Sequence record: PZ445446.1
Source: a phage
Length of the DNA: 64,000 nucleotides
Strand: one strand, 5' to 3'
Shown: one piece after another, positions 1 to 64,000 of the stretch
Layout: each line of letters starts with the position of its first letter
Numbering within the stretch: the stretch's first letter is position 1
The notes under the pieces: generated by a model
What the model saw: the letters and a program-made list of their open reading frames with translations, nothing else
Databases searched by the model: none
What the model was told of the DNA's origin: nothing
Translations under genes and position numbers: made by a program

Positions 1-136
1 TGGGCAAAAAGTCAACAAACTTATCTTGATCCTTGGTGGATGATCGAAAATAGTCGTTGACAGGAAGTAAGATTAGATATAAGATGCTTCACACAAACAG
101 AGCGTTGATTGTTTAACACTTAAGGAGACCGCTAAG

Positions 137-6368: not shown

Positions 6369-6558
6369 GCTTAAATCTGCATGGAACATCGCTGTGGGGG
6401 ATGAGATCCGCATCCCAGGTGGAAAGACCATTATGAAGATATCACGTATCGAGTATGAAGGTGATCGTGTATTTCATATCTTTGCAGAAGATGGTCGAGA
6501 AATTTATATACAGGCAGGCTCTCACATCTATATCAGTAAGAAAGGGGACGACAAATGA
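6355..6558 (+). CDS. hypothetical small protein
   Basis: 67 aa ORF overlapping upstream gene end with aggag SD. Confidence 0.4.
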   Translation: MQMFKLKSAWNIAVGDEIRIPGGKTIMKISRIEYEGDRVFHIFAEDGREIYIQAGSHIYISKKGDDK

Positions 6559-6887
6559 CAGAGATCATCGTTTCAACTGCAGGGTATGTATTCCTGACAA
6601 TCATTGCGTTGGCTATTCTGGTGGCGGTGTATGGATTTGTTATCCTGCCTATTCTTGAGACATTTAGCTTGTGTCGGTGTTGGAGAAAAGCTTACGGACC
6701 ACAACCGTGGAAAGACTGGTTTCATTTGGTGCGTATAGCGTTCTCTTATGCCTATGATCACTCCAGCAGTGCATGCGTAACCGGGTACCATGCCTACAAC
6801 TGGAACTGGGAAGGGCTTGGGAGATGGACTGTTACAAAAACTATACCCTTACGGTTGTATAAAGGAAAGAACACACTGGGAGCCTGA
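6555..6887 (+). CDS. putative membrane protein
   Basis: 110 aa; ATGA overlap with upstream gene; N-terminal hydrophobic segments. Confidence 0.4.
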   Translation: MTEIIVSTAGYVFLTIIALAILVAVYGFVILPILETFSLCRCWRKAYGPQPWKDWFHLVRIAFSYAYDHSSSACVTGYHAYNWNWEGLGRWTVTKTIPLRLYKGKNTLGA

Positions 6888-6889
6888 TA

Positions 6890-7900
6890 TTTTAAGTTAT
6901 CAGATTGCCAGAGATCAGGAGGATTTCTAAAATGGATTTCCTCCTTTTGATATTTTACCTACCAGGATATTTTAAAATCCTTAGAAAATCAGAAAATGGA
7001 TCGAAAACTAAAATGGATTTTTCAGAGCAGGCACGACGAGATGAACCACTCATCCTATCGTCTGCACCATATTCCAGACCACCATTACAGATTTCCCGCA
7101 CATGCTCACACCCTTCTACTAGAACTTCCCCCACTTACCCTTGACCTTTTATAGTAATAATCCAACCACTACCTTGAAGTTGTGGCGCAGCTTTCCAAGT
7201 ACTCGATCTGTTTTTCGTTTCAAAGATTGAATTTTCTGAAAATTTTTCTCGATAAATTTCTCAGTACTCGATCTGTTTTTCGTTTTCTGAATCGGATTTT
7301 CTGGAAATCGTTCCGGCTCTCGACCTGAAATTTTTGGGGACGAAATCGATTTTTCGTTTTCAGAAATGGATTTTTAAAATTTCTATATGGGAATATTTTA
7401 GTGGATACTATTTTATAGGAAATTGTTACGGAGGATAATTAGCGTGCTAATTAAATTTATTAAATGCGAGGAGTTCTCATTTAGAATTTTGAATGATAAT
7501 CATTCTCGTTTGCAGAATAACGGGCAGGCCCGGTGATTGTCTCCCGGCCCCTACTGCCCCGGCTTGTTATTATAGTAACACACAGGACAAAGAAAGCAAG
7601 AAGTTTTTGCATAAATTTTTAGACGATAATGATAATCGTTCTCATTTCATGCAGCGCCCATCCCCGGTGGTTGTCTCCCCCGTCACCGGTGCCTGCCGTC
7701 CTTTCGATAGGTATATTTTGCCACCTGGCGGGGCCGCTGTCAACACTTTTCAAAAAAAAAAAAAATTCTAACCTGATGCGCTGACCGCTGCAACCTGGCG
7801 GGGCCAGCCTGGCAGGGCCTAACTGACCAGGTAGGAGAGAATGAAGGCTTGCAAACCTGGTGGGCCTATGCTATAGGATAGGTAACAATTGAAGAGGAGG
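6890..7900. repeat. non-coding repeat-rich region
   Basis: Two direct copies of gtactcgatctgtttttcgttt (~7200 and ~7264), several aaatggattt / gattttc units, paired gataatc(a/g)ttctc and gtg(a/g)ttgtctccc copies, and an A14 homopolymer at ~7752-7765. Confidence 0.6.
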
Positions 7901-7907
7901 TACAAAA

Positions 7908-8045
7908 ATGGAAGGTAATATGATCCCCCTGGTTGAAAAGGCTATGGCGGGAGCGTTGGAACATAAAGAAGAGTACGAAAAAATGATGGTTAACCTGGCA
8001 GGGGCGGCGGCTGGAGAATTCTACCCAAAAAATAATTTTAACTAA
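7908..8045 (+). CDS. hypothetical micro-protein
   Basis: 45 aa ORF not in track; strong SD agaggagg 6 nt upstream of ATG. Confidence 0.35.
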   Translation: MEGNMIPLVEKAMAGALEHKEEYEKMMVNLAGAAAGEFYPKNNFN

Positions 8046-8130
8046 TGGTTGACAGCTCGGACAGTTCTTGTTATTCTTATCCTCACAAGGTGAACAACAC
8101 CACACCAATTAACAGAGAGGATAAAAAATC

Positions 8131-8328
8131 ATGAACGCCTACGGAATTAAAGTACGTCGCAACACTCGCCAGGTGGTCACCAATCAAGTGATTTGCCGGG
8201 TGGATGTAACCATCAACAACGGGCAAGGCCTTTATAAATTTCGTCGCGGTCATAGCTATACCCTGCAACAGCTTAACCGTTGCGCCCTGACAAAAGGTCA
8301 GATCAACCACTGGTTTAATAAAAAATAA
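8131..8328 (+). CDS. hypothetical small protein
   Basis: 65 aa ORF; TTGACA promoter-like sequence at ~8048 and agagaggataaaaaatc SD. Confidence 0.45.
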   Translation: MNAYGIKVRRNTRQVVTNQVICRVDVTINNGQGLYKFRRGHSYTLQQLNRCALTKGQINHWFNKK

Positions 8329-8391
8329 TGTTGACATATGGTCTGACACAAAATACACTGAAATCACAAAAGACACTAAGAGGATAAAATC

Positions 8392-8790
8392 ATGAAAACC
8401 ACTACCTTTAATTTTGATAATGCGGACTTTTCTTTTTCTGATGTCAAGAACTGCCGCCGTGATCGTGGATTTTACAAGGCTTATAATCTGGTGGGCCTGG
8501 ACGATGACAATAATTTGCACGAAGTAGCTGAGATCCGGTATTATGCCGCCGCCAGTGGTAACACTCACTACTGCGTGTTTTGGATTCACGACAACAAGAA
8601 CAATAAGTACGGTTATACTGGCGGCAAGGCGAGCGGTCACGGTTACGATAAAGCTAACGCAGCACTTGAGAGCGCATTAAATGCTATGGGGATCACTGCC
8701 GACGGCTGGATCTACGAAGAAGAGTTTTTGTCGGCACTTGCTGACCACCTGGGCTATAAAAAGCACATTGTGACATGCGCCCACGAATAA
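8392..8790 (+). CDS. hypothetical protein
   Basis: 132 aa ORF; TTGACA promoter-like at ~8331 and aagaggataaaatc SD. Confidence 0.5.
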   Translation: MKTTTFNFDNADFSFSDVKNCRRDRGFYKAYNLVGLDDDNNLHEVAEIRYYAAASGNTHYCVFWIHDNKNNKYGYTGGKASGHGYDKANAALESALNAMGITADGWIYEEEFLSALADHLGYKKHIVTCAHE

Positions 8791-9271: not shown

Positions 9272-9318
9272 TTATTTTTAGATGGCCTTGACTTCAGGGC
9301 CATCAATAAAGTAAACTA
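9272..9318 (+). repeat. repeated intergenic promoter-hairpin element, copy 1
   Basis: attatttttagatggccttgacttcagggccatcaataaagtaaact; a 7-bp inverted repeat (gatggcc/ggccatc) encloses a TTGACT -35-like hexamer. Confidence 0.6.
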
Positions 9319-13340: not shown

Positions 13341-13438
13341 CTCCCTGAGTGTTGCAATCCGATCCAGAATATGGATAATAACAATCAACGGGGAGACACT
13401 CCCCACCGCATAGACAAAGTTCCAAAAGGAGAAACAAA

Positions 13439-13639
13439 ATGAGCAACAATATCCGCGTTATTAACTTCAAAAAAGAAGAAAAAATTGCCGTGCTGATTGA
13501 CGGTCAAGAAATCTTTAAAGGTGATTATGAAGATCATCAAACGGCGATTAGTATCACTCGCGTGATTGGTTACCATAATTTTTACCCTCAAGGCGCTGAG
13601 GCAGCAGTAAAACGAATTAAAGAGATTGTAGGCCTGTAA
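13439..13639 (+). CDS. hypothetical small protein
   Basis: 66 aa ORF; TTGCAA/TAATAA promoter-like and aaaaggagaaac SD. Confidence 0.45.
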   Translation: MSNNIRVINFKKEEKIAVLIDGQEIFKGDYEDHQTAISITRVIGYHNFYPQGAEAAVKRIKEIVGL

Positions 13640-16565: not shown

Positions 16566-16582
16566 TCCTTATAAACTACAAA

Positions 16583-16610
16583 ACAGGGCTTGCAATGGTC
16601 CTGTTTTTTG
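16583..16610 (+). terminator. rho-independent terminator
   Basis: Hairpin acaggg-cttgcaatggt-cctgt followed by tttttg. Confidence 0.5.
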
Positions 16611-16777
16611 TTATACTTGTTTCACGGCAGGCACCTGGCGACGGGGGGAGACAATCACCGGGTGTGCCTGCTATATAAAAATTATAAAAACCGTTGACAT
16701 CTGCCAGGTGGTGGGGTAGCATTTATCTCGAAGGGGGCAAAAGCGCCCACACAACAACCGGAAGAGAGGAAAACGCC

Positions 16778-17050
16778 ATGTTAAGCTGGATTAACCAAGA
16801 AGTTGAATCACGTTTTAATGCTATTTGGGATCTCATCGAAAAAGAGGACGGAACATCAAGCCCTTATCTCAATAATCTTGAATTCCATTTCGTGGAAGCG
16901 ATGAACGCAGAACATGATCACGAAGGTGGTGCGGATGAATTCGCTAAAGGATATGGCTTCAACAATGCCAACGAAATGATCGAGGCGGTTGTACTCCAGG
17001 CTGAGGAAGATTATCAATTAAAAACGCTTGAATTCTGCCGCCGTAAGTAA
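16778..17050 (+). CDS. hypothetical protein
   Basis: Internal ATG at 16778 with gaagagaggaaaacgcc SD; TTGACA promoter-like and hairpin upstream. Confidence 0.45.
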   Translation: MLSWINQEVESRFNAIWDLIEKEDGTSSPYLNNLEFHFVEAMNAEHDHEGGADEFAKGYGFNNANEMIEAVVLQAEEDYQLKTLEFCRRK

Positions 17051-17981: not shown

Positions 17982-18539
17982 GTCTGCTCTTCTCCTACCA
18001 TAAACGGCCCTACCTGGCAAGTGGAATAATTGACTAGCCATCAATCCCACATACTGTACAAATATACATGGAAAATAACTATTGCATAATTTTTCATTGT
18101 GTGGTAGCAAGTCCATTTTTACCCGTTTTCTCTCCCAAAAGTGCACGTAATGCCGCTATTGCACAAATTTTAACCTGATGCACATCTCCAATATCTTGTC
18201 AACAACTAAAAATCTTTATAAGTCATACACTTACACAGCATCGAAAGCGTGTTCTACGCGAAAAATCGAGTATAACTATAGCCGCCAGATCTCAGAATTC
18301 ACGTACGCACGCCATTCTATAGCCTGCAAAGTATTTATTCCAACCACAGAATAACGGAATAGTCAATACCTGCATAAAATAATTATTCGTGTAAACTGCA
18401 TAACATAAATCAGCTCAGGTGTCAACATTTTTCGTAAACAGTCCGAAATTATCACGATGAGCTATCATAAACAGAGAAATATTTAGTCGTCTAATGTTTA
18501 CTGTACATTACTATACTGACTGGAATCATTAGATGACTA

Positions 18540-19010
18540 AGAGAAAGATAAGAAATAATTAATAATGTAATTATTTTACCTGTAACAATAAGGCAACTAT
18601 GCAAACGAATGGCATGGCGCGACGGAGTCGCGACATAATATAAAAGCAGTAACCATCACCCCCGTGATAGTTTGTCTGCAAACTATTAATCAGATCATAG
18701 TTGCCTTGTATTTAGTTAATCATGACATAACAAGCAAGGCAACTATAGATCTTCTAATAGTTGCCCTGCTTTTATATTATGTCATAGGAACGCCCGAAGG
18801 GGTGACCTAGTCACCTGGTATAGCCAGCGAAAGATTATTAACTTGTCGATTGTTATCTTGTTAATTGTTTTCATGCAAACGAATGGCATGGCTTATCATC
18901 TATGCGTGAACAGTGAGGCATGCAATAGTAACAATTGTTATTGTATCCAGTGTGTTGAGTATGCCCAGTGTGTCACTATTATGTCATATTATGTCACAGT
19001 ATGTCAGACA
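18540..19010. repeat. iteron-like repeat cluster in non-coding convergence zone
   Basis: Direct and inverted copies of caaggcaactat / atagttgcc, two copies of atgcaaacgaatggcatggc (~18597 and ~18877), and a run of (t)atgtca(t/c/g) units at ~18975-19010. Confidence 0.5.
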
Positions 19011-20458
19011 AGTTTTCCTCCTCTTTGTCAAGTGCTGCATGAAAAATTTACAAGCTTGTATGGTAGCATTTTTGCGGCCCTGTTTACATTCAGTGTTGTA
19101 TGTATAATCCTTGTTGTGTGGGCGTTTAGACGTCTGGACGGTCAGAAGTTTGCAGGTCAATATCTAATCTATTGGCTGCTAACTATATCCCCCACAAATA
19201 ATAAGAAATATAATTGTTATGTGCGTAAACAGTAACCCATGTTATCAATCCCTGTATGTATCGCCAGTGGTGCGCATAATGGGTATTATGTTAAATTGCC
19301 CGTAATGATAACAGTTCTCACAATGATAGGTATTCTCATTCATCCACACAAAATAGGTTGCAAATGTTGTGCCACTGTGTGAACGGCCTGGCCTATTAAT
19401 TTCTCTCACTGCCTCGATATTTGAGAATTGTTATAAGAATGAGAAGTATTCCCATTCCGTCCGCCTGGCAGCACTCCAGTAGCTACCGGCTCCTGACAGG
19501 GCAGCACTCCTGTAGGTCAGGTCAAAATCGTGGTAGAATTGGGCCTGTTCAGATATTTCTGACTGACTCTTCAGATCTGTGTGGGAAAAGCCAACCTCTC
19601 CGGAGGGGCAGGGGAGGTCAATTAAAAAATTTACGTGGTGTATGAAGCGCTCTTCAGGTAAGGCATGTATTATGGGATGAAACCCTCTTCAGGCAATGAT
19701 ATTTGTGGGTGTGATATTTGCTGGAAAGCCAGATATGACGGGACTCCCGGCGGGGATGGGGTAGTACAGACAGGGAAAATATGGGGATGTAGTTGGGTAA
19801 ATTGATCAGACAGGTAGAGTATGGAATATGTTACAAGTATGTTAAATAGGGAGGATGAATATCTGCAGGATTTGTGTGTAAAATCAAAGACTTAAGTGGT
19901 GTTGTGGTATTTTCTATAAATAATTCAAGTTTAATAGGTAATATTTGTCTCTATCCACTTTGTGTGGTAAACAGATTCAGATGAAATTGGTTTACAAGTG
20001 TATACATAATATACAAATTAAAGATACAAGAAACCCCCCTCCCCCTTCGGCTACCATTCACCTTTTCCTCTGACTGGTACTTAAACACTTATTCAGACTC
20101 TTCAGGTTATCACCCATATATCATATGGCAGTGACTGGTGTCCTCCGGCCCCTCTTTCGTCACCCGTCCGCTTCGCCATGCTAATGCCATAGCCAATGGT
20201 TCGGTTGTTCACTCTGTTCACTCAGGTGTATCTCCATACCCCTTCAAACCGAAGAGAACAGAAAACCCGAATTACTCGGTAAAAGAAAAGAGAAGAACTT
20301 AATTTTATCAGGATAGGCAAGAATGTCAAGGCATGACTGCTCACTAAACAAGCAAACAGTCATGTGTGGAAGGTAAGTGATTGTGGTGGTGGGAAATTTA
20401 GTTGAAAGATGTGTTATAGGTGCGCTTCCAGCACTTTGGCCGGGCAGCTAATTGTGTG

Positions 20459-20674
20459 TCAGTCCAGCGGTTCATCCTCTACTTCACTGAAATCAATGTT
20501 CATGGTCTCCTCCCAACCATCGATCTCAGCACAAGAGTGGAGTTCTTTAGGGTTTACTCCCAAAGCCTCAGCAACAGAGTCTATATTTAACACCTCTGGC
20601 AGGTATGATTCATCGAATTCAAGGTAAATCAGGCCACGAGTGTTGTCAGCTCCACCAAATATCTCTATCTTCAT
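20459..20674 (-). CDS. hypothetical small acidic protein
   Basis: 71 aa ORF; distal gene of the leftward block. Confidence 0.4.
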   Translation of the reverse strand: MKIEIFGGADNTRGLIYLEFDESYLPEVLNIDSVAEALGVNPKELHSCAEIDGWEETMNIDFSEVEDEPLD

Positions 20675-20795
20675 GAAATCTCCTCTGGAAATGAGAGTGT
20701 GAACAGGGTTTTATACGTTCTAATGCACAGGAATTATACACGTTTGCCTCTTCAGGCCATGCTTTAGCATGAGGAACCTGTGTGGGCTCGGTGCT

Positions 20796-21008
20796 TCATA
20801 GTCTACCACCTCTGAACTCTTCGTGCTCAGGCATAATAGAGAACCAGATATCTACGATGTCCTCCCACGTCAGGTCATCAGCCTCAGGATCTGTCTGGGA
20901 CGAAGATGAAGAGTCCTCAGAATCTAAGTTTTCCTCTTTAACTGGCTCATCCAAGGGACATATGGTCACTCCTTCGGATGTCTCTTCAGATGCATGTGTG
21001 TTGATCAT
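20796..21008 (-). CDS. hypothetical small acidic protein
   Basis: 70 aa ORF, Ser/Asp/Glu rich. Confidence 0.35.
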   Translation of the reverse strand: MINTHASEETSEGVTICPLDEPVKEENLDSEDSSSSSQTDPEADDLTWEDIVDIWFSIMPEHEEFRGGRL

Positions 21009-61306: not shown

Positions 61307-61381
61307 GCCCTGTTAGCTTAGTGGATAAAGCAGCGGCCTTCTAAGCCGTTGACACTGGTTCGAGTCCAGTACGGGGTGCCA
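61307..61381 (+). tRNA. tRNA-Arg (anticodon UCU)
   Basis: Hand-folded cloverleaf: acceptor gccctgt/acggggt (two G-U), D-arm gctt/aagc, anticodon loop cttctaa, T-loop ttcgagt, encoded CCA. Confidence 0.7.
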
Positions 61382-61385
61382 AATT

Positions 61386-61472
61386 GGGGAGTTATCCCGT
61401 AGAGGTAGCGGTGTAGACTGTAAATCTATTGTCATTGCGACTCGGGTGGTTCGACTCCACCACTCCCCACCA
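61386..61472 (+). tRNA. tRNA-Tyr (anticodon GUA), type II
   Basis: Acceptor ggggagt/actcccc, anticodon loop ctgtaaa, long variable arm, T-arm ggtgg-ttcgact-ccacc, CCA encoded; close to E. coli tRNA-Tyr. Confidence 0.75.
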
Positions 61473-61586
61473 AATTTATATTTTTAGATGCATAAATAAT
61501 ACAGATAATGGCATTGATATTTATCGTCGTTTATACTAGTCACTAACTGCTCGAAAATCAGTGTCATTATCAGTATAATTTATAAA

Positions 61587-61677
61587 GGAGGGTAGGGAGC
61601 AATGGTGCTCAAGCGGTCTTGAAAACCGTCCCGTTGAGGATGACTCGATGATGGTTCGATTCCATTACTCTCCGCCA
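61587..61677 (+). tRNA. tRNA-Ser (anticodon UGA), type II
   Basis: Acceptor ggagggt/actctcc, D-stem gagc/gctc, anticodon stem gcggt/accgt with loop cttgaaa, long variable arm, T-loop ttcgatt, CCA encoded. Confidence 0.7.
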
Positions 61678-61766
61678 CATTGTTGACCTTGTAATTAAGC
61701 GAAAGCCGGAAGCAGAACCGGATTATCAAATGTTACAGTCGTCATCGCCGACTAGCAACATGGTCA

Positions 61767-61863
61767 ACATACTGAGCTAGGTAAGCCCTTTGGCAAGGGC
61801 GAGGATTTTTAATCCTGAAAATAGACGAGGTAGTCGTTGAATACATAGGTGGTTCGATTCCAT
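61767..61863 (+). tRNA. atypical tRNA-like gene (UUU-like anticodon loop, ~30-nt extra region, no encoded CCA)
   Basis: Perfect 7-bp acceptor gctaggt/acctagc, normal D-arm (gccc-tttggcaa-gggc) and T-arm (ggtgg-ttcgatt-ccatc), anticodon-like loop tttttaa; ~30 nt between anticodon and T arms; 3' end is CCT. Confidence 0.4.
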
Positions 61864-61870
61864 CACCTAG

Positions 61871-61946
61871 CACCTTTTTGCTGATGTAGCACAATCGGTA
61901 GTGCAATTGATTTGTAATCAATAGGTTGTAGGTTCAAGTCCTGCCA
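61871..61946 (+). tRNA. tRNA-Thr (anticodon UGU)
   Basis: Acceptor gctgatg/catcagc, D-stem gcac/gtgc, anticodon stem attga/tcaat with loop tttgtaa, T-loop ttcaagt, CCA encoded. Confidence 0.75.
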
Positions 61947-61947
61947 T

Positions 61948-62022
61948 CAGCACCAAGGCCCTGTAGCTGGAAGGTTCAAGCAAGCGACTCATAATCGCCA
62001 GACGGTGGTTCAATTCCACCCA
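61948..62022 (+). tRNA. tRNA-Met (anticodon CAU; initiator/elongator/Ile-lysidine not resolved)
   Basis: Acceptor ggccctg/cagggcc, anticodon loop ctcataa, T-arm ggtgg-ttcaatt-ccacc, CCA encoded. Confidence 0.65.
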
Positions 62023-62033
62023 GGGCCACCAAA

Positions 62034-62110
62034 TAGTAAATACTCCGCGTAGCTCAGCTTGGTAGAGCGCCTGATTTGGGATCAGGAGGTCGAGTGTTCG
62101 AATCACTCCG
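62034..62110 (+). tRNA. tRNA-Pro (anticodon UGG)
   Basis: Acceptor ctccgcg/cgtggag, D-arm gctc-agcttggta-gagc, anticodon stem cctga/tcagg with loop tttggga, T-loop ttcgaat, CCA encoded. Confidence 0.75.
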
Positions 62111-62165
62111 TGGAGACCACTTTCAGTTATACTTTAAACATATATAAACAAAAGGAACCTTTAAA

Positions 62166-63223: not shown

Positions 63224-63648
63224 TGTCTAAGATTTACGGACCGTGTTCTGAAAAGCAGAAGATGATCCTCGAAAACGATGCAGATATTTTGGTAATCGGC
63301 GGTGCCGCAGGGTCTGGCAAGTCGTTCCTCTTGCAATTGATGCCACTTAAAATTATTGATGACCCCCACAGCTCTGTGGTTATGTTCCGAAGAACAACCC
63401 CGCAGTTGGAAGGTGAGGGTGGACTATGGCCTAAAGCGGTAGCTATTTATAGTGATCTGCCTGAAAACATTAAGCCAAAGTTCAGAGAGAAGGATCATAA
63501 GTTCATTTTTCCACGGTTTGATCCGAACACTGGCAAGTGGGATAGAAGCAAAAAGGGAGCTGTTGTAAAATACTGCCACATGGAGTATGTACAAGATAAG
63601 CTTAACCATCAAGGGCTTGAGTACACCATGGTTTGCTTCGATGAGGGT
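63223..63648 (+). CDS. terL: terminase large subunit, exon 1 (ATPase N-terminus, interrupted by intron)
   Basis: Walker A GGAAGSGKS and Walker B-like MVCFDEG; ORF stops after only 142 aa exactly where group I intron elements begin. Confidence 0.6.
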
Positions 63649-64000
63649 TAATTTGTAGCTCTCGTAAAACCTCCCTAATTGCGGGGAAATCTTTACTATT
63701 AATACCACCAACCTGTCATGGTAACATGATAGAGGCTTCGAAGAGAGATCGAAGGTATGGTAACAGTGTGTTAATTTAGATAATCCGCAGCGAAGCATCC
63801 GAGAGGATGAACGTTCAACGACTAGTCGAAAGACGTAGAATCAAGCGATTCGAAACGGGAGGATAAGCGGTTGTTGTCGCTTATAAGATATAGTCTGGTC
63901 TGCATGGAGACATGCAGCTGCCTGAAAATGGCGGGGCAAGACTAGCGACCTTGCCCGAACATAAACGACACAATTCGAATGGGAGCAGATAGACTATCTG
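63649..64000 (+). ncRNA. group I self-splicing intron (5' portion; continues beyond window)
   Basis: Core elements in canonical order: P-like aattgcggggaaa (~63677), Q-like aatccgcagcg (~63782), R-like gttcaacgactag (~63813), S-like aagatatagtc (~63885); exon ends in U; candidate IGS gctctc can pair with exon gagggu. Confidence 0.65.

Follow-up and report, generated by a model that had tools for sequence, protein, structure and literature searches.

A 64-kb stretch of DNA from an rV5-like Vequintavirus (referred to as the window) carries a hitherto undescribed sequence element that is strongly conserved near strong promoters in many unrelated virulent phages. It occurs in several copies in non-coding DNA, keeps a fixed orientation and position relative to promoters, and is associated with palindromic boxes and iterons. 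With moderate confidence, we interpret the motif as the core of a conserved cis-element, a transcribed leader that is recognised via its sequence and is perhaps tied to the activation of an origin. Phages of the rV5 group are large virulent coliphages used in phage therapy and biocontrol, and their regulatory DNA is essentially unannotated.

Copies of the motif and their coding status

The motif GGTG(A/G)TTGTCTCCC was found exactly three times when both strands of the window were searched, compared to an analytic expectation of about 5e-4. The initial annotation had described the 14-mer as repeated, with an inverted copy at about 16640, and this was borne out by the genome-wide motif search. 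The three exact matches are:

7532-7545, plus strand: copy 1, GGTGATTGTCTCCC
7666-7679, plus strand: copy 2, GGTGGTTGTCTCCC
16646-16659, minus strand: copy 3, GGTGATTGTCTCCC

When up to two mismatches were allowed, four matches of the 14-mer were obtained versus 0.6 expected, a number that was reached in 1 of 100 shuffles. MaxBurger, a complete 136-kb genome that is 99.7% identical, has the same three copies and no further ones. The common sequence exceeds 14 nt and reads CCCGGTG.TTGTCTCCC with GGCAGG-type flanks. On the opposite strand, which we take as the functional one, the motif reads GAGACAANCACC; a G-rich stretch precedes it, and it is usually followed by N4-5 and (C)TGCCYG. Read in this sense, the elements are:

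7532..7543, minus strand: copy 1 core, GAGACAATCACC
7521-7543, minus strand: copy 1 extended element, GAGACAATCACC-GGGC-CTGCCCG
7666..7677, minus strand: copy 2 core, GAGACAACCACC, with a diverged 3' part (GGGGATGGGCG) that lacks the CTGCCYG half
16648..16659, plus strand: copy 3 core, GAGACAATCACC, with an extended element reaching TGCCTG at 16665-16670

Copies 1 and 2 lie in an ORF-free region of about 1 kb (6888-7907), where the ORF annotation differs between records and which is either left blank or given spurious ORFs. The annotated 92-aa ORF (7493-7771) is reduced to 7 aa in MiataMamis, and the frame of its C-terminus shifts with the length of an A-run. A 43-aa ORF (7612-7481) shows non-synonymous differences only, has no SD and is missing from other genera. 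Since neither ORF is conserved as coding, we rejected a protein-coding gene over the copies, and the earlier description of 6.9-7.9 kb as non-coding held. On the plus strand, copies 1 and 2 are spaced 134 nt apart and therefore fall into different reading frames.

Conservation and fixed position relative to promoters

Chance frequency and a lack of conservation in related genomes had been named in the initial annotation as grounds for dismissing the motif; neither was observed, and the comparison with related phages that it had suggested revealed strong conservation there and well beyond. The motif is present in 7 genomes of Vequintavirus, 9 further genomes of Vequintavirinae/Phapecoctavirus and over 12 unrelated phage lineages from metagenomes. 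The core GAGACAA-N-CACC does not vary among 23 distinct copies, taken from the 7 Vequintavirus genomes and from other genera, but the flanks do. Three of the metagenomic lineages (L279, L283 and L313) showed no BLASTN similarity to any GenBank phage.

A scan of 185,579 bacterial species genomes yielded 52 matches, which is approximately the chance number; they were scattered over unrelated taxa, and none was in Enterobacterales. These chance-level matches rule out a host chromosomal or plasmid repeat. A scan of viral contigs with the 16-mer CCGGTGRTTGTCTCCC gave more than 120 matches, almost all of them in a prophage capsid-type gene. These were discarded as coincidental, as they lie inside the conserved coding sequence for LPVIVSQYVGD. 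A scan with GCAGAATNNCGGGCAGG was too unspecific (1 relevant match among 120).

A predicted σ70 promoter scoring 9-12/12 was found on the GAGACAA strand for all copies in 16 genomes, with the end of its -10 element 24-38 nt upstream. At random positions, such a promoter is found in only about 3% of cases, and the opposite orientation scores 4-8/12 in the same distance window. The distance between motif and -10 element is usually 23-47 nt, and approximately 90 nt in one lineage; in L285 and L420, no recognisable promoter was found upstream of the motif. When the matches from the viral, genome and metagenome scans were combined, an upstream promoter of at least 9/12 accompanied 33 of 45 non-coding matches but only 8 of 119 chance coding matches. 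For promoters of at least 11/12, the corresponding values were 12 of 45 and 0 of 119. With predicted promoters at a consistent distance that are conserved in relatives, the copies have the sequence features of a transcribed leader downstream of a σ70 promoter. The promoters in the window are:

7569..7599, minus strand: copy 1 promoter, -35 TTGCTT (7599-7594), 19-nt spacer, -10 TATAAT (7574-7569), 9/12
7715..7766, minus strand: P_left, a predicted strong leftward promoter, T-run UP element at 7750-7766, TG and -35 TTGACA (7743-7738)
7720-7715, minus strand: extended -10 of P_left, TGgCAAAAT, after a GC-rich spacer of 17 nt
16582..16617, plus strand: hairpin resembling a terminator that belongs to the upstream gene and contains a promoter, whose -35 TTGCAA (16590-16595) is in the loop
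16612-16617, plus strand: -10 TATACT of this embedded copy 3 promoter, preceded by a T-run and separated from the copy 3 core by 30 nt
16694..16722, plus strand: downstream early promoter TTGACA-17-TAGCAT, 34 nt past copy 3, with an A/T-rich UP-like stretch before it

The 19-nt spacer of the copy 1 promoter is atypical in Vequintavirus. Its orthologues read TTGCCA/TTGCAA/TTGACA-16..18-TATATT/TATAAT and score 10-12/12 in KaOmega, L046 and L129. P_left has an orthologue in KaOmega, KpS8 and SSE121; its -10 variants (CAAAAT, CACAAT and CATAAT) retain A2 and T6. It is predicted to read through copy 2, box B, the copy 1 promoter, copy 1 and box A towards the iterons (see below). At copy 3 of CarlMeissner/EI-SP-GF the upstream sequence is replaced, yet a different promoter is found at the same distance: here and in other genera, a different hairpin is combined with TTGACT-17/18-TATTCT. 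The initial annotation had placed the inverted copy just upstream of a promoter, and indeed TTGACA-17-TAGCAT follows copy 3; this promoter is predicted to drive the gene at 16778-17050. It had also stressed that the motif is kept on both strands. Both orientations do occur, but there is a simpler explanation, as the orientation is fixed relative to the promoter: the inverted copy just follows the predicted direction of transcription.

According to the reading we prefer, the element would be located within the first ~20-60 transcribed nucleotides after strong σ70-type promoters. Copies 1 and 2 would be transcribed leftwards, against the flanking genes, to two Fur-box-like operators and three iterons, and copy 3 would come between a terminator/promoter cassette and an early gene. 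The element would be recognised by its sequence, either within the nascent leader RNA or on the corresponding non-template strand of the DNA: a protein would read it as a tag and set the fate of the transcript (which could be read-through, stability or processing). At iteron-bearing sites, it could also send a transcript with an activating or priming role into what is probably a replication origin. We infer promoter firing, the active form (RNA or non-template strand) and the kind of factor that binds; structure does not favour a role at the RNA level over one at the DNA level.

RfaH ops/JUMPStart, lambda nut and HK022 put are likewise short conserved leader sequences that are orientation-dependent and promoter-specific. 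As in the motif, the distance from the promoter is variable in these leaders of processive antitermination and amounts to tens of nucleotides; ops, too, is invariant over 12 nt, which are read as the non-template strand. However, the sequence of ops (GGCGGTAGnnTG) is unrelated and had no match at up to two mismatches near the copies. A boxA core (CGCTCTTA / GCTCTTTAACAA) was not found near any copy, and we found no NusG/RfaH-, N- or Q-like factor encoded by the phage. Unlike nut and put, the motif has no conserved boxB- or put-like stem-loop. We do not count it among the RfaH ops or lambda-type nut sites. As a more speculative extension, which we put forward tentatively, GAGACAANCACC-N4-5-CTGCCYG might be a widespread leader tag of virulent phages, a counterpart of ops/nut read by conserved host transcription/RNA machinery or by a widespread phage factor. 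Such a tag would mark the transcripts of the strongest early promoters and couple them to replication initiation at origin-like regions under a Fur-like operator.

An invariant 12+7-nt element at the same place relative to strong promoters in otherwise dissimilar phages points to a shared molecular partner. If this partner is the transcription or RNA machinery, the element would offer a new handle on early gene control. It also provides a simple signature by which control regions of this kind can be located in phage genomes and their annotation corrected.

The same data could be explained by a double-stranded DNA operator without any RNA part, although we consider this unlikely. A phage or host protein would bind GAGACAANCACC..CTGCCYG and repress, roadblock or activate, either just downstream of a promoter or upstream of the next one. 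Consistent with an operator, the sequence is conserved and the structure is not, strand asymmetry is absent, and palindromic operator-like boxes accompany the element. Moreover, it ends 33-34 nt before a second -35 at copy 3, L428 and L439, where an A-rich UP-like stretch lies beside the motif, and 43 nt before it in L372, i.e., one helical turn more. Against this, the core has neither dyad nor direct-repeat symmetry, and a downstream promoter is present only in a minority of members, whereas the upstream promoter is nearly universal. The variable distance to the latter is atypical for an operator acting on initiation, and phages that share no other DNA similarity would require a very widely conserved DNA-binding protein.

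Fur-like boxes, iterons and origin-like context

Beyond what the initial annotation covered, the region contains Fur-like palindromes and iterons, in addition to the leftward promoter:

7493..7509: box A, Fur-box-like palindrome ATGATAAT-C-ATTCTCGT, 15/19 to the Fur consensus (7491-7509)
7625..7645: box B, GATAATGATAATCGTTCTC / palindrome ATGATAATCGTTCTCAT, 17/19 to the Fur consensus (7625-7643)
7189..7374: three direct repeats (iterons) of 65-74 nt with the core AGTACTCGATCTGTTTTTCGTTT, downstream of copy 1 in its transcribed sense

In the transcribed sense, box A is located about 25 nt downstream of copy 1, and box B is downstream of copy 2. Judged by the 19-bp consensus GATAATGATAATCATTATC and a 7-1-7 inverted repeat, both palindromes are predicted Fur boxes and as such candidates for the kind of site found at Fur-regulated promoters (e.g., ryhB). 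Phages that infect many different enterobacterial hosts with Fur retain such boxes. The cross-genus consensus, ATGAGAAT-N-ATTCTCAT, differs from Fur boxes in having the half-site TGAGAAT, not TGATAAT, and the boxes are neighbours of the motif rather than the motif itself.

With at least three direct repeats in an ORF-free region with A/T tracts, including an A15 run at ~7750-7766, the locus resembles an iteron-type origin. Related repeat arrays were found in phiTE, KpS8, KaOmega, SSE121 and ChuuTotoro, and the order promoter, motif, boxes, iterons/A-T tracts is the same in the window and in these five genomes. Arrays in L283, L279, L285 and L313 are unrelated, and the same order of promoter, motif and boxes/iterons recurs in the unrelated contigs L283, L279/L435, L285, L313 and L382/L413. 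In the viral scan, arrays or boxes (at least three copies) were located downstream in the motif sense at 11 non-coding copy-1-type sites, and upstream at none. If the element is tied to the iterons, this would be the first candidate replication origin for the Vequintavirinae, and an iron (Fur) input into phage replication would be suggested.

A rival explanation is that the element is itself an origin component: the promoter-motif unit would yield a G-rich primer or R-loop transcript, or a primase start, which initiates replication at the iterons. The recurring order described above speaks for it, as do the G-runs directly 5' of the core, the location of the element always inside an ORF-free region of 1-3 kb, and the 5'-TTGTC-3' on the template strand, a site of the T7-gp4 type, together with a gp4-like primase/helicase among the proteins of the phage. 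GC/AT skew also shifts at ~7 kb, where the gene orientation is unchanged, but there is no change of sign, and in the rV5 paper the origin could not be located by skew (PMC3606486). Adjacent genes mostly have no functional assignment. Among the genes flanking the copies in the window and the neighbours in unrelated contigs, no initiator or candidate binding protein was found; neighbours with any assignment are a distant PIF1/Dda-like helicase, an AAA ATPase and homing endonucleases. An origin role cannot be general, because iterons are missing at copy 3, at the copy-3-type sites and in many metagenomic members, where terminators, promoters or genes come next. In other genera, copy-3-type sites are followed by CTGCCCGCTATTCAGG and a Fur-like box. 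Overall, we regard the origin-component explanation as improbable.

The predicted arrangement resembles origin-associated primer or activator promoters, namely the R-loop origins T4 oriF/oriG, the T7 primary origin phi1.1A/B and ColE1 RNA II, where a promoter sends a non-coding, G-rich transcript into an A/T-rich, repeat-containing ORF-free region. In contrast to the motif sites, those origins have no common 12-nt core; here, the origin is only putative, and one of the three copies in the window as well as many relatives are without iterons.

Pairing potential and further alternatives

As the initial annotation had observed, the copies are set in GC-rich palindromes, and the segment around each of them is predicted to fold:

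7522..7559, minus strand: hairpin-forming GC-rich segment of copy 1 (GGGCAG...CTGCCC), -21.6 kcal/mol
7651..7697, minus strand: hairpin-forming GC-rich segment of copy 2 (GGCAGGCACCGGTG...CACCGG...GCGCTGC)
16626..16671, plus strand: hairpin-forming GC-rich segment of copy 3 (GGCAGGCAC...GTGCCTGC), -24.2 kcal/mol, z -2.3 to -2.8

The predicted hairpins at the three window copies range from -18 to -24 kcal/mol, and their stability relative to shuffles is moderate (z -0.4 to -2.8). The initial annotation had suggested a protein-binding site or a shared RNA structural element and had proposed folding each copy with its flanks. A functional recognition site is well supported by conservation; a shared structure is not. 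RNAalifold found 0 pairs and no consensus structure for the 23 distinct copies, native 5' and 3' arms folded no better than inter-lineage chimeras (-17.2 versus -17.2 kcal/mol), indicating no co-evolution of the arms, and sense and antisense folding showed no asymmetry (p = 0.17). Conserved pairing with covariation, as in a structured cis-regulatory RNA (riboswitch/ribozyme-like), was thus not observed. At the gathering threshold, Rfam gave no match over the copies in the window. At E<=5, only two unrelated weak matches were obtained for both strands of 6800-8100, and at E<=1 there were none at six orthologous loci. What is conserved is sequence and position, not a given helix, and the GC-rich pairing is a loose context.

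A functional stem acting as intrinsic terminator, RNase III-type processing site or 5' stabiliser is accordingly very unlikely. It is true that folding is predicted for all copies, that the flank-shuffle z averages -1.1 with 8 of 36 values below -2, and that arms differing among lineages still pair in shifted registers. However, the hairpins are weak in L129, ChuuTotoro and KpS8 (-7 to -12 kcal/mol), and the core, predicted to be mostly unpaired (P 0.70-0.95), is in the loop in some lineages and in the stem in others. An intrinsic terminator at the copies was ruled out: the tails after the hairpins (CGGCTTGTTATT, CGTCCTTTCG, TATATAAAAA or GTGAAACAAG) contain no T/U tract, which is absent from either strand at copy 3 and most orthologues, and a scan of 6500-8500 called a single terminator-like site, at 7330-7367, and none at the copies. 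A Rho-independent terminator is annotated at the homologous place in phiTE (NC_020201), likewise a GC-rich intergenic inverted repeat, but it comprises only 11 nt without a U-tract, and the element is found after a promoter and not at a gene end.

The element could also be an evolutionary passenger, i.e., a mobile promoter cassette spread by recombination and homogenised by gene conversion, with a functionless core. Copy 3 of MiataMamis is identical to its copy 2 over 32 nt, indicating gene conversion between copies, which may raise the identity of copies within a genome. Copy 3 is located at a mosaic junction, its upstream sequence being different among Vequintavirus genomes, and an association with terminator-embedded promoters exists. 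PeSL cassettes of T4-type phages are intergenic, lie in early regions of large virulent phages, combine a σ70 promoter with a stem-loop, and are found at mosaic junctions and prone to recombination. Arbiol and colleagues are said to have described these promoter-early stem-loop cassettes in 2010, the conserved part reportedly being the promoter/stem-loop. The copy 3 promoter, with its -35 in the loop of a terminator hairpin, resembles them. Here, in contrast, it is a separate 12+7-nt core downstream of a variable promoter that stays invariant, even among unrelated phages. Across lineages without other detectable nucleotide similarity, 11 of the 12 core positions are invariant beside freely diverged promoters and flanks; hitch-hiking would not preserve 12 nt, and genomes with a single copy retain the motif. 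There is little to recommend a passenger.

A trans-acting antisense pair, in which copy 3 RNA (GGGGAGACAAUCACC) would form regulatory kissing loops with plus-strand RNA of copies 1/2 if the plus strand were transcribed throughout, is hardly credible: complementarity is perfect over 14-15 nt, in every genome copy 3 has the same variable base as copy 1 or copy 2, and a weak plus-strand promoter-like site (TTGAAT-18-CAGAAT, 8/12) lies over the boxes, but many genomes are single-copy, two-copy metagenomic contigs such as L439 have both copies in one orientation, each with its own promoter, and the strongest promoters all read in the GAGACAA sense.

A σ54 promoter was dropped by sequence comparison, since the spacing is 4 nt too long. 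Chi, KOPS, DnaA box, IHF, CRP and CsrA GGA sites, a CRISPR-repeat mimic and a hammerhead-like core were dropped on sequence comparison alone. The papers on rV5, phiTE and CB7 describe σ70-like promoters and a 'non-coding' box and do not describe the motif element; literature on transcriptomes, origins and Fur boxes in the rV5-type phage group yielded nothing usable. phiTE also carries a pseudo-ToxI locus, which is located elsewhere in that genome (106.7 kb).

The motif copies and the region that carries them

The window shares 99.7% identity with Escherichia phage MaxBurger and about 90-99% with more than 100 rV5-like phages (Vequintavirus). Exact matches to the 14-nt motif GGTGRTTGTCTCCC were found at 7532-7545 (plus strand, copy 1), 7666-7679 (plus strand, copy 2) and 16646-16659 (minus strand, copy 3). 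With 5e-4 copies expected, three are far beyond chance, indicating that the motif is non-random. A genome-wide search of the complete MaxBurger sequence (136 kb) returned the same three copies and no further one. The sequence common to the copies is longer than 14 nt (CCCGGTG.TTGTCTCCC plus GGCAGG-type flanks). When up to two mismatches were allowed, four matches were obtained versus 0.6 expected, and the extra site (13391-13404) is a different palindrome. This site (GGGGAGACACTCCCC), kept in Vequintavirus, has GGGGAGACA in common with the motif. It folds into a small, perfect hairpin that lies within the 5' UTR of the gene at 13439, 10 nt past a plus-strand GATAAT -10 element, and probably represents a 5' stem-loop in its own right.

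Copies 1 and 2 fall within a tandem duplication (about 135 bp, diverged; repeat families D8/D9), each with a Fur-box-like palindrome in front of it on the plus strand. The roughly 1-kb region that contains them (6888-7907) is flanked by plus-strand genes without known function, and the DNA polymerase gene lies some 8-9 kb upstream. ORF annotation of this region differs by record: V18 and navn have none, and the BASEL phages and MiataMamis have different ones. The 92-aa plus-strand ORF spanning copies 1 and 2 comprises only 7 aa in MiataMamis, and the frame at its end depends on the length of an A-run. Since the two copies are spaced 134 nt apart, they fall in different frames. A 43-aa minus-strand ORF is open throughout Vequintavirus; its differences are all non-synonymous, including V to D and C to R in the 'hydrophobic' part, and it has neither a ribosome-binding site nor a counterpart in other genera. 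The motif region is non-coding.

Predicted promoters upstream of the motif

In every genome examined, a sigma70-type promoter was found upstream of every copy on the GAGACAANCACC strand. Therefore copy 3, described in the initial annotation as inverted, is not inverted relative to transcription: it has the same orientation as copies 1 and 2 with respect to its upstream promoter. All three copies would be transcribed as GGGAGACAAYCACC. The predicted promoters match the consensus at 9-12 of 12 positions; their -10 elements end 24-31 nt before AGACAA at copies 1 and 3 and 38 nt before it at copy 2.

Promoters upstream of the three copies in the window
Copy 3, plus strand: TTGCAA-16-TATACT, predicted
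Copy 2 (P_left), minus strand: TGTTGACA-17-(TG)gCAAAAT with a T15 UP element, also called by a promoter scan
Copy 1, minus strand: TTGCTT-19-TATAAT, predicted, atypical spacer

Only about 3% of random positions have a comparable promoter at that distance, and the same distance window in the opposite orientation of the three copies gave 8, 8 and 4 of 12. Orthologues of the copy 1 promoter read TTGCCA-17-TATATT, TTGACA-16-TATTAT and TTGACA-18-TATAAT. The copy 2 promoter agrees with the consensus published for early promoters of Certrevirus (PMC7344957). Upstream of copy 3, CarlMeissner and EI-SP-GF carry replacement sequence, and a different promoter (TTGACT-17-TATTCT) is present at the same distance.

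Several other promoter arrangements were observed. At 16582-16617, the loop of the upstream gene's terminator hairpin holds the -35 element of the next promoter, whose -10 follows the T-run; this resembles a promoter-early stem-loop cassette, and other genomes have a different hairpin of the same design. Within spacers of sigma70-like promoters, a GC-rich AACCTGGCGGGGCC-like motif was counted five times (7722-8008; also the promoter at 16694, in its spacer), and comparable GC-rich spacers (CCCGGCCTGG...) are seen in orthologous promoters from other genera. Three near-identical promoter cassettes at 9288, 9919 and 13659 (ttatttttagatggcc-TTGACT-ycagggccatcaataaag-TAAACT) carry a GGCC...GGCC inverted repeat within the spacer.

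Conservation of the module in related and distant phages

Comparison with related phages showed the three copies at the same places in all seven Vequintavirus genomes examined, with a constant core and variable flanking arms. By low-stringency BLASTN, conservation beyond Vequintavirus was confined to 7456-7547 within this region, with matches in Mydovirus, Certrevirus, Seunavirus, a Serratia phage and Phapecoctavirus, which belongs to a different subfamily. Alignment of 23 distinct copies revealed an invariant GAGACAA-N-CACC followed by ..TG, on the strand opposite to that first described; (C)TGCC(C/T)G, 4-5 bases after the core, is common to true members.

In leftward (transcribed) sense, the window contains P_left, copy 2, a Fur-box-like palindrome (7625-7645), the copy 1 promoter, copy 1, a second such palindrome (7493-7509) and three iterons of 65-74 nt (7189-7374). 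An A15 run lies at about 7750-7766. The order is the same in other genera: a leftward promoter, a conserved GC-rich block, a hairpin promoter, the motif and CCTGCCCGCTATTCTG, then 1-4 palindromes with the consensus ATGAGAAT-N-ATTCTCAT, followed by 3-5 iterons (GGTCTCGATCG...GAAAAAATTTTT). A second site, of the copy-3 type, also occurs in other genera, where a promoter embedded in a terminator-like hairpin precedes the motif, CTGCCCGCTATTCAGG and then a Fur-like box. The GC-rich block, about 110 nt (ACAGGAGAGGAGACGCCACCCCACGGCGAAAAGGCGGGGCTAACGTACCGGGC... in leftward sense), is non-coding, highly conserved in other Vequintavirinae (L136:1640-1760, L134, L137, L138, L125) and without a match in Rfam; it directly follows the leftward promoter, where Vequintavirus has copy 2 instead.

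Compared with the 19-bp Fur consensus GATAATGATAATCATTATC, 7493-7509 matches at 15 and 7625-7645 at 17 positions. In phages infecting Escherichia, Klebsiella, Salmonella, Serratia, Pectobacterium and Proteus, 1-4 such palindromes are invariably found directly downstream of the motif in transcribed sense, which suggests a possible iron/Fur or phage-repressor input. No record annotates the iteron region, a candidate for a replication origin or control hub; related GGTCTCGATCG...GAAAAAATTTTT arrays are present in other Vequintavirinae. Between the AT-rich repeats (6885-7020) and the iterons, about 140 nt (~7040-7180) are C/A/T-rich and nearly without G on the plus strand. Across ~6500-8000, GC skew declines (about +0.19 to about 0) and AT skew increases (about 0.03 to about 0.17) with constant gene orientation; this compositional change near 7 kb is consistent with an origin without establishing one.

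A 16-mer scan of public viral contigs gave more than 120 matches, nearly all representing one coincidental site in a conserved prophage capsid-type gene; the same non-coding context was found only in rV5-related contigs. Extended-pattern scans of viral contigs and metagenomes split cleanly into chance matches in long open frames and matches in non-coding DNA, the latter from Vequintavirinae and more than 12 other lineages. Among distinct matches, an upstream promoter of at least 9/12 was present at 33 of 45 non-coding versus 8 of 119 coding sites, and one of at least 11/12 at 12 of 45 versus none of 119; several were a perfect TTGACA-17-TATAAT. Eleven non-coding copy-1-type sites from the viral scan have at least three repeats or boxes downstream in motif sense, and none of the 11 has such an array upstream. 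Contigs L283 (328 kb), L279/L435 (87 kb), L313 (94 kb), L285 and L382/L413 have iteron arrays of their own following the motif, located in 1-3-kb stretches free of ORFs; BLASTN of L279, L283 and L313 matched no GenBank phage. In bacterial genomes the pattern occurred at chance level only, and not at all in Enterobacterales. In a 215-kb metagenome contig (L380:1230-1330), the motif lies about 40 nt from an exact reverse complement of itself (ACGGGGGAGACAATCACCG ... CGGTGATTGTCTCCCCT), and the two form a long inverted repeat.

RNA structure and possible function

The initial annotation had placed the motif in GC-rich hairpins and proposed a protein-binding site or shared RNA structural element. 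The hairpin context was reproduced, as each window copy is predicted to fold (-18 to -24 kcal/mol), with z-scores against shuffles of only -0.4 to -2.8. Across the collection every copy folds, and flanks do somewhat better than shuffled sequence (mean z -1.1; 8 of 36 below -2). RNAalifold found zero consensus pairs among the copies, and the pairing register of the arms differs between lineages. Native arm combinations and inter-lineage chimeras both gave -17.2 kcal/mol; hairpins are weak in several lineages, and half of the core itself is paired in the L279/L395/L382 lineage. Sense and antisense folding did not differ (p=0.17), and no Rfam family matched the copies. The 'terminator' annotation in phiTE is unsupported because a U-tract is absent. 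We conclude that sequence and promoter-proximal position are conserved, with GC-rich pairing as loose context. The initial observation is confirmed, and its interpretation holds in part: a functional recognition site is well supported, but a defined shared RNA structure is not.

The element is undescribed, widely conserved and promoter-proximal; the rV5, phiTE and CB7 papers do not describe it. Our comparisons show an element that is specific in sequence, dependent on orientation and placed within the first tens of nucleotides that would be transcribed from strong predicted promoters; many genomes couple it to operator-like palindromes and iterons. The most economical reading of these sequences is a leader tag that would be recognised either on the nascent RNA or on the non-template strand. 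A protein reading this tag would decide the fate of transcripts from these promoters, and at iteron-bearing sites an activating or priming transcript could be delivered into a probable origin. Less probably, the motif could serve as a duplex-DNA operator or an origin-specific priming site, and, less probably still, as a stabilising hairpin, a passenger of recombination or a pair acting as antisense in trans. The known leader elements ops and boxA are absent, and flanking and neighbouring genes gave no pointer to a partner.

Elsewhere in the window, about 2.5 kb at ~18500-21000 (MaxBurger 92785-95298) lack an annotated gene where plus- and minus-strand transcription units converge. Seven tRNA genes cluster at 61307-62119, including a 99-nt tRNA-like gene assigned a 4-base anticodon by ARAGORN and annotated as tRNA-Lys in MaxBurger. 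Past this cluster, a group I intron (84 bits) was detected at 63639-63917; its host gene is probably terminase.
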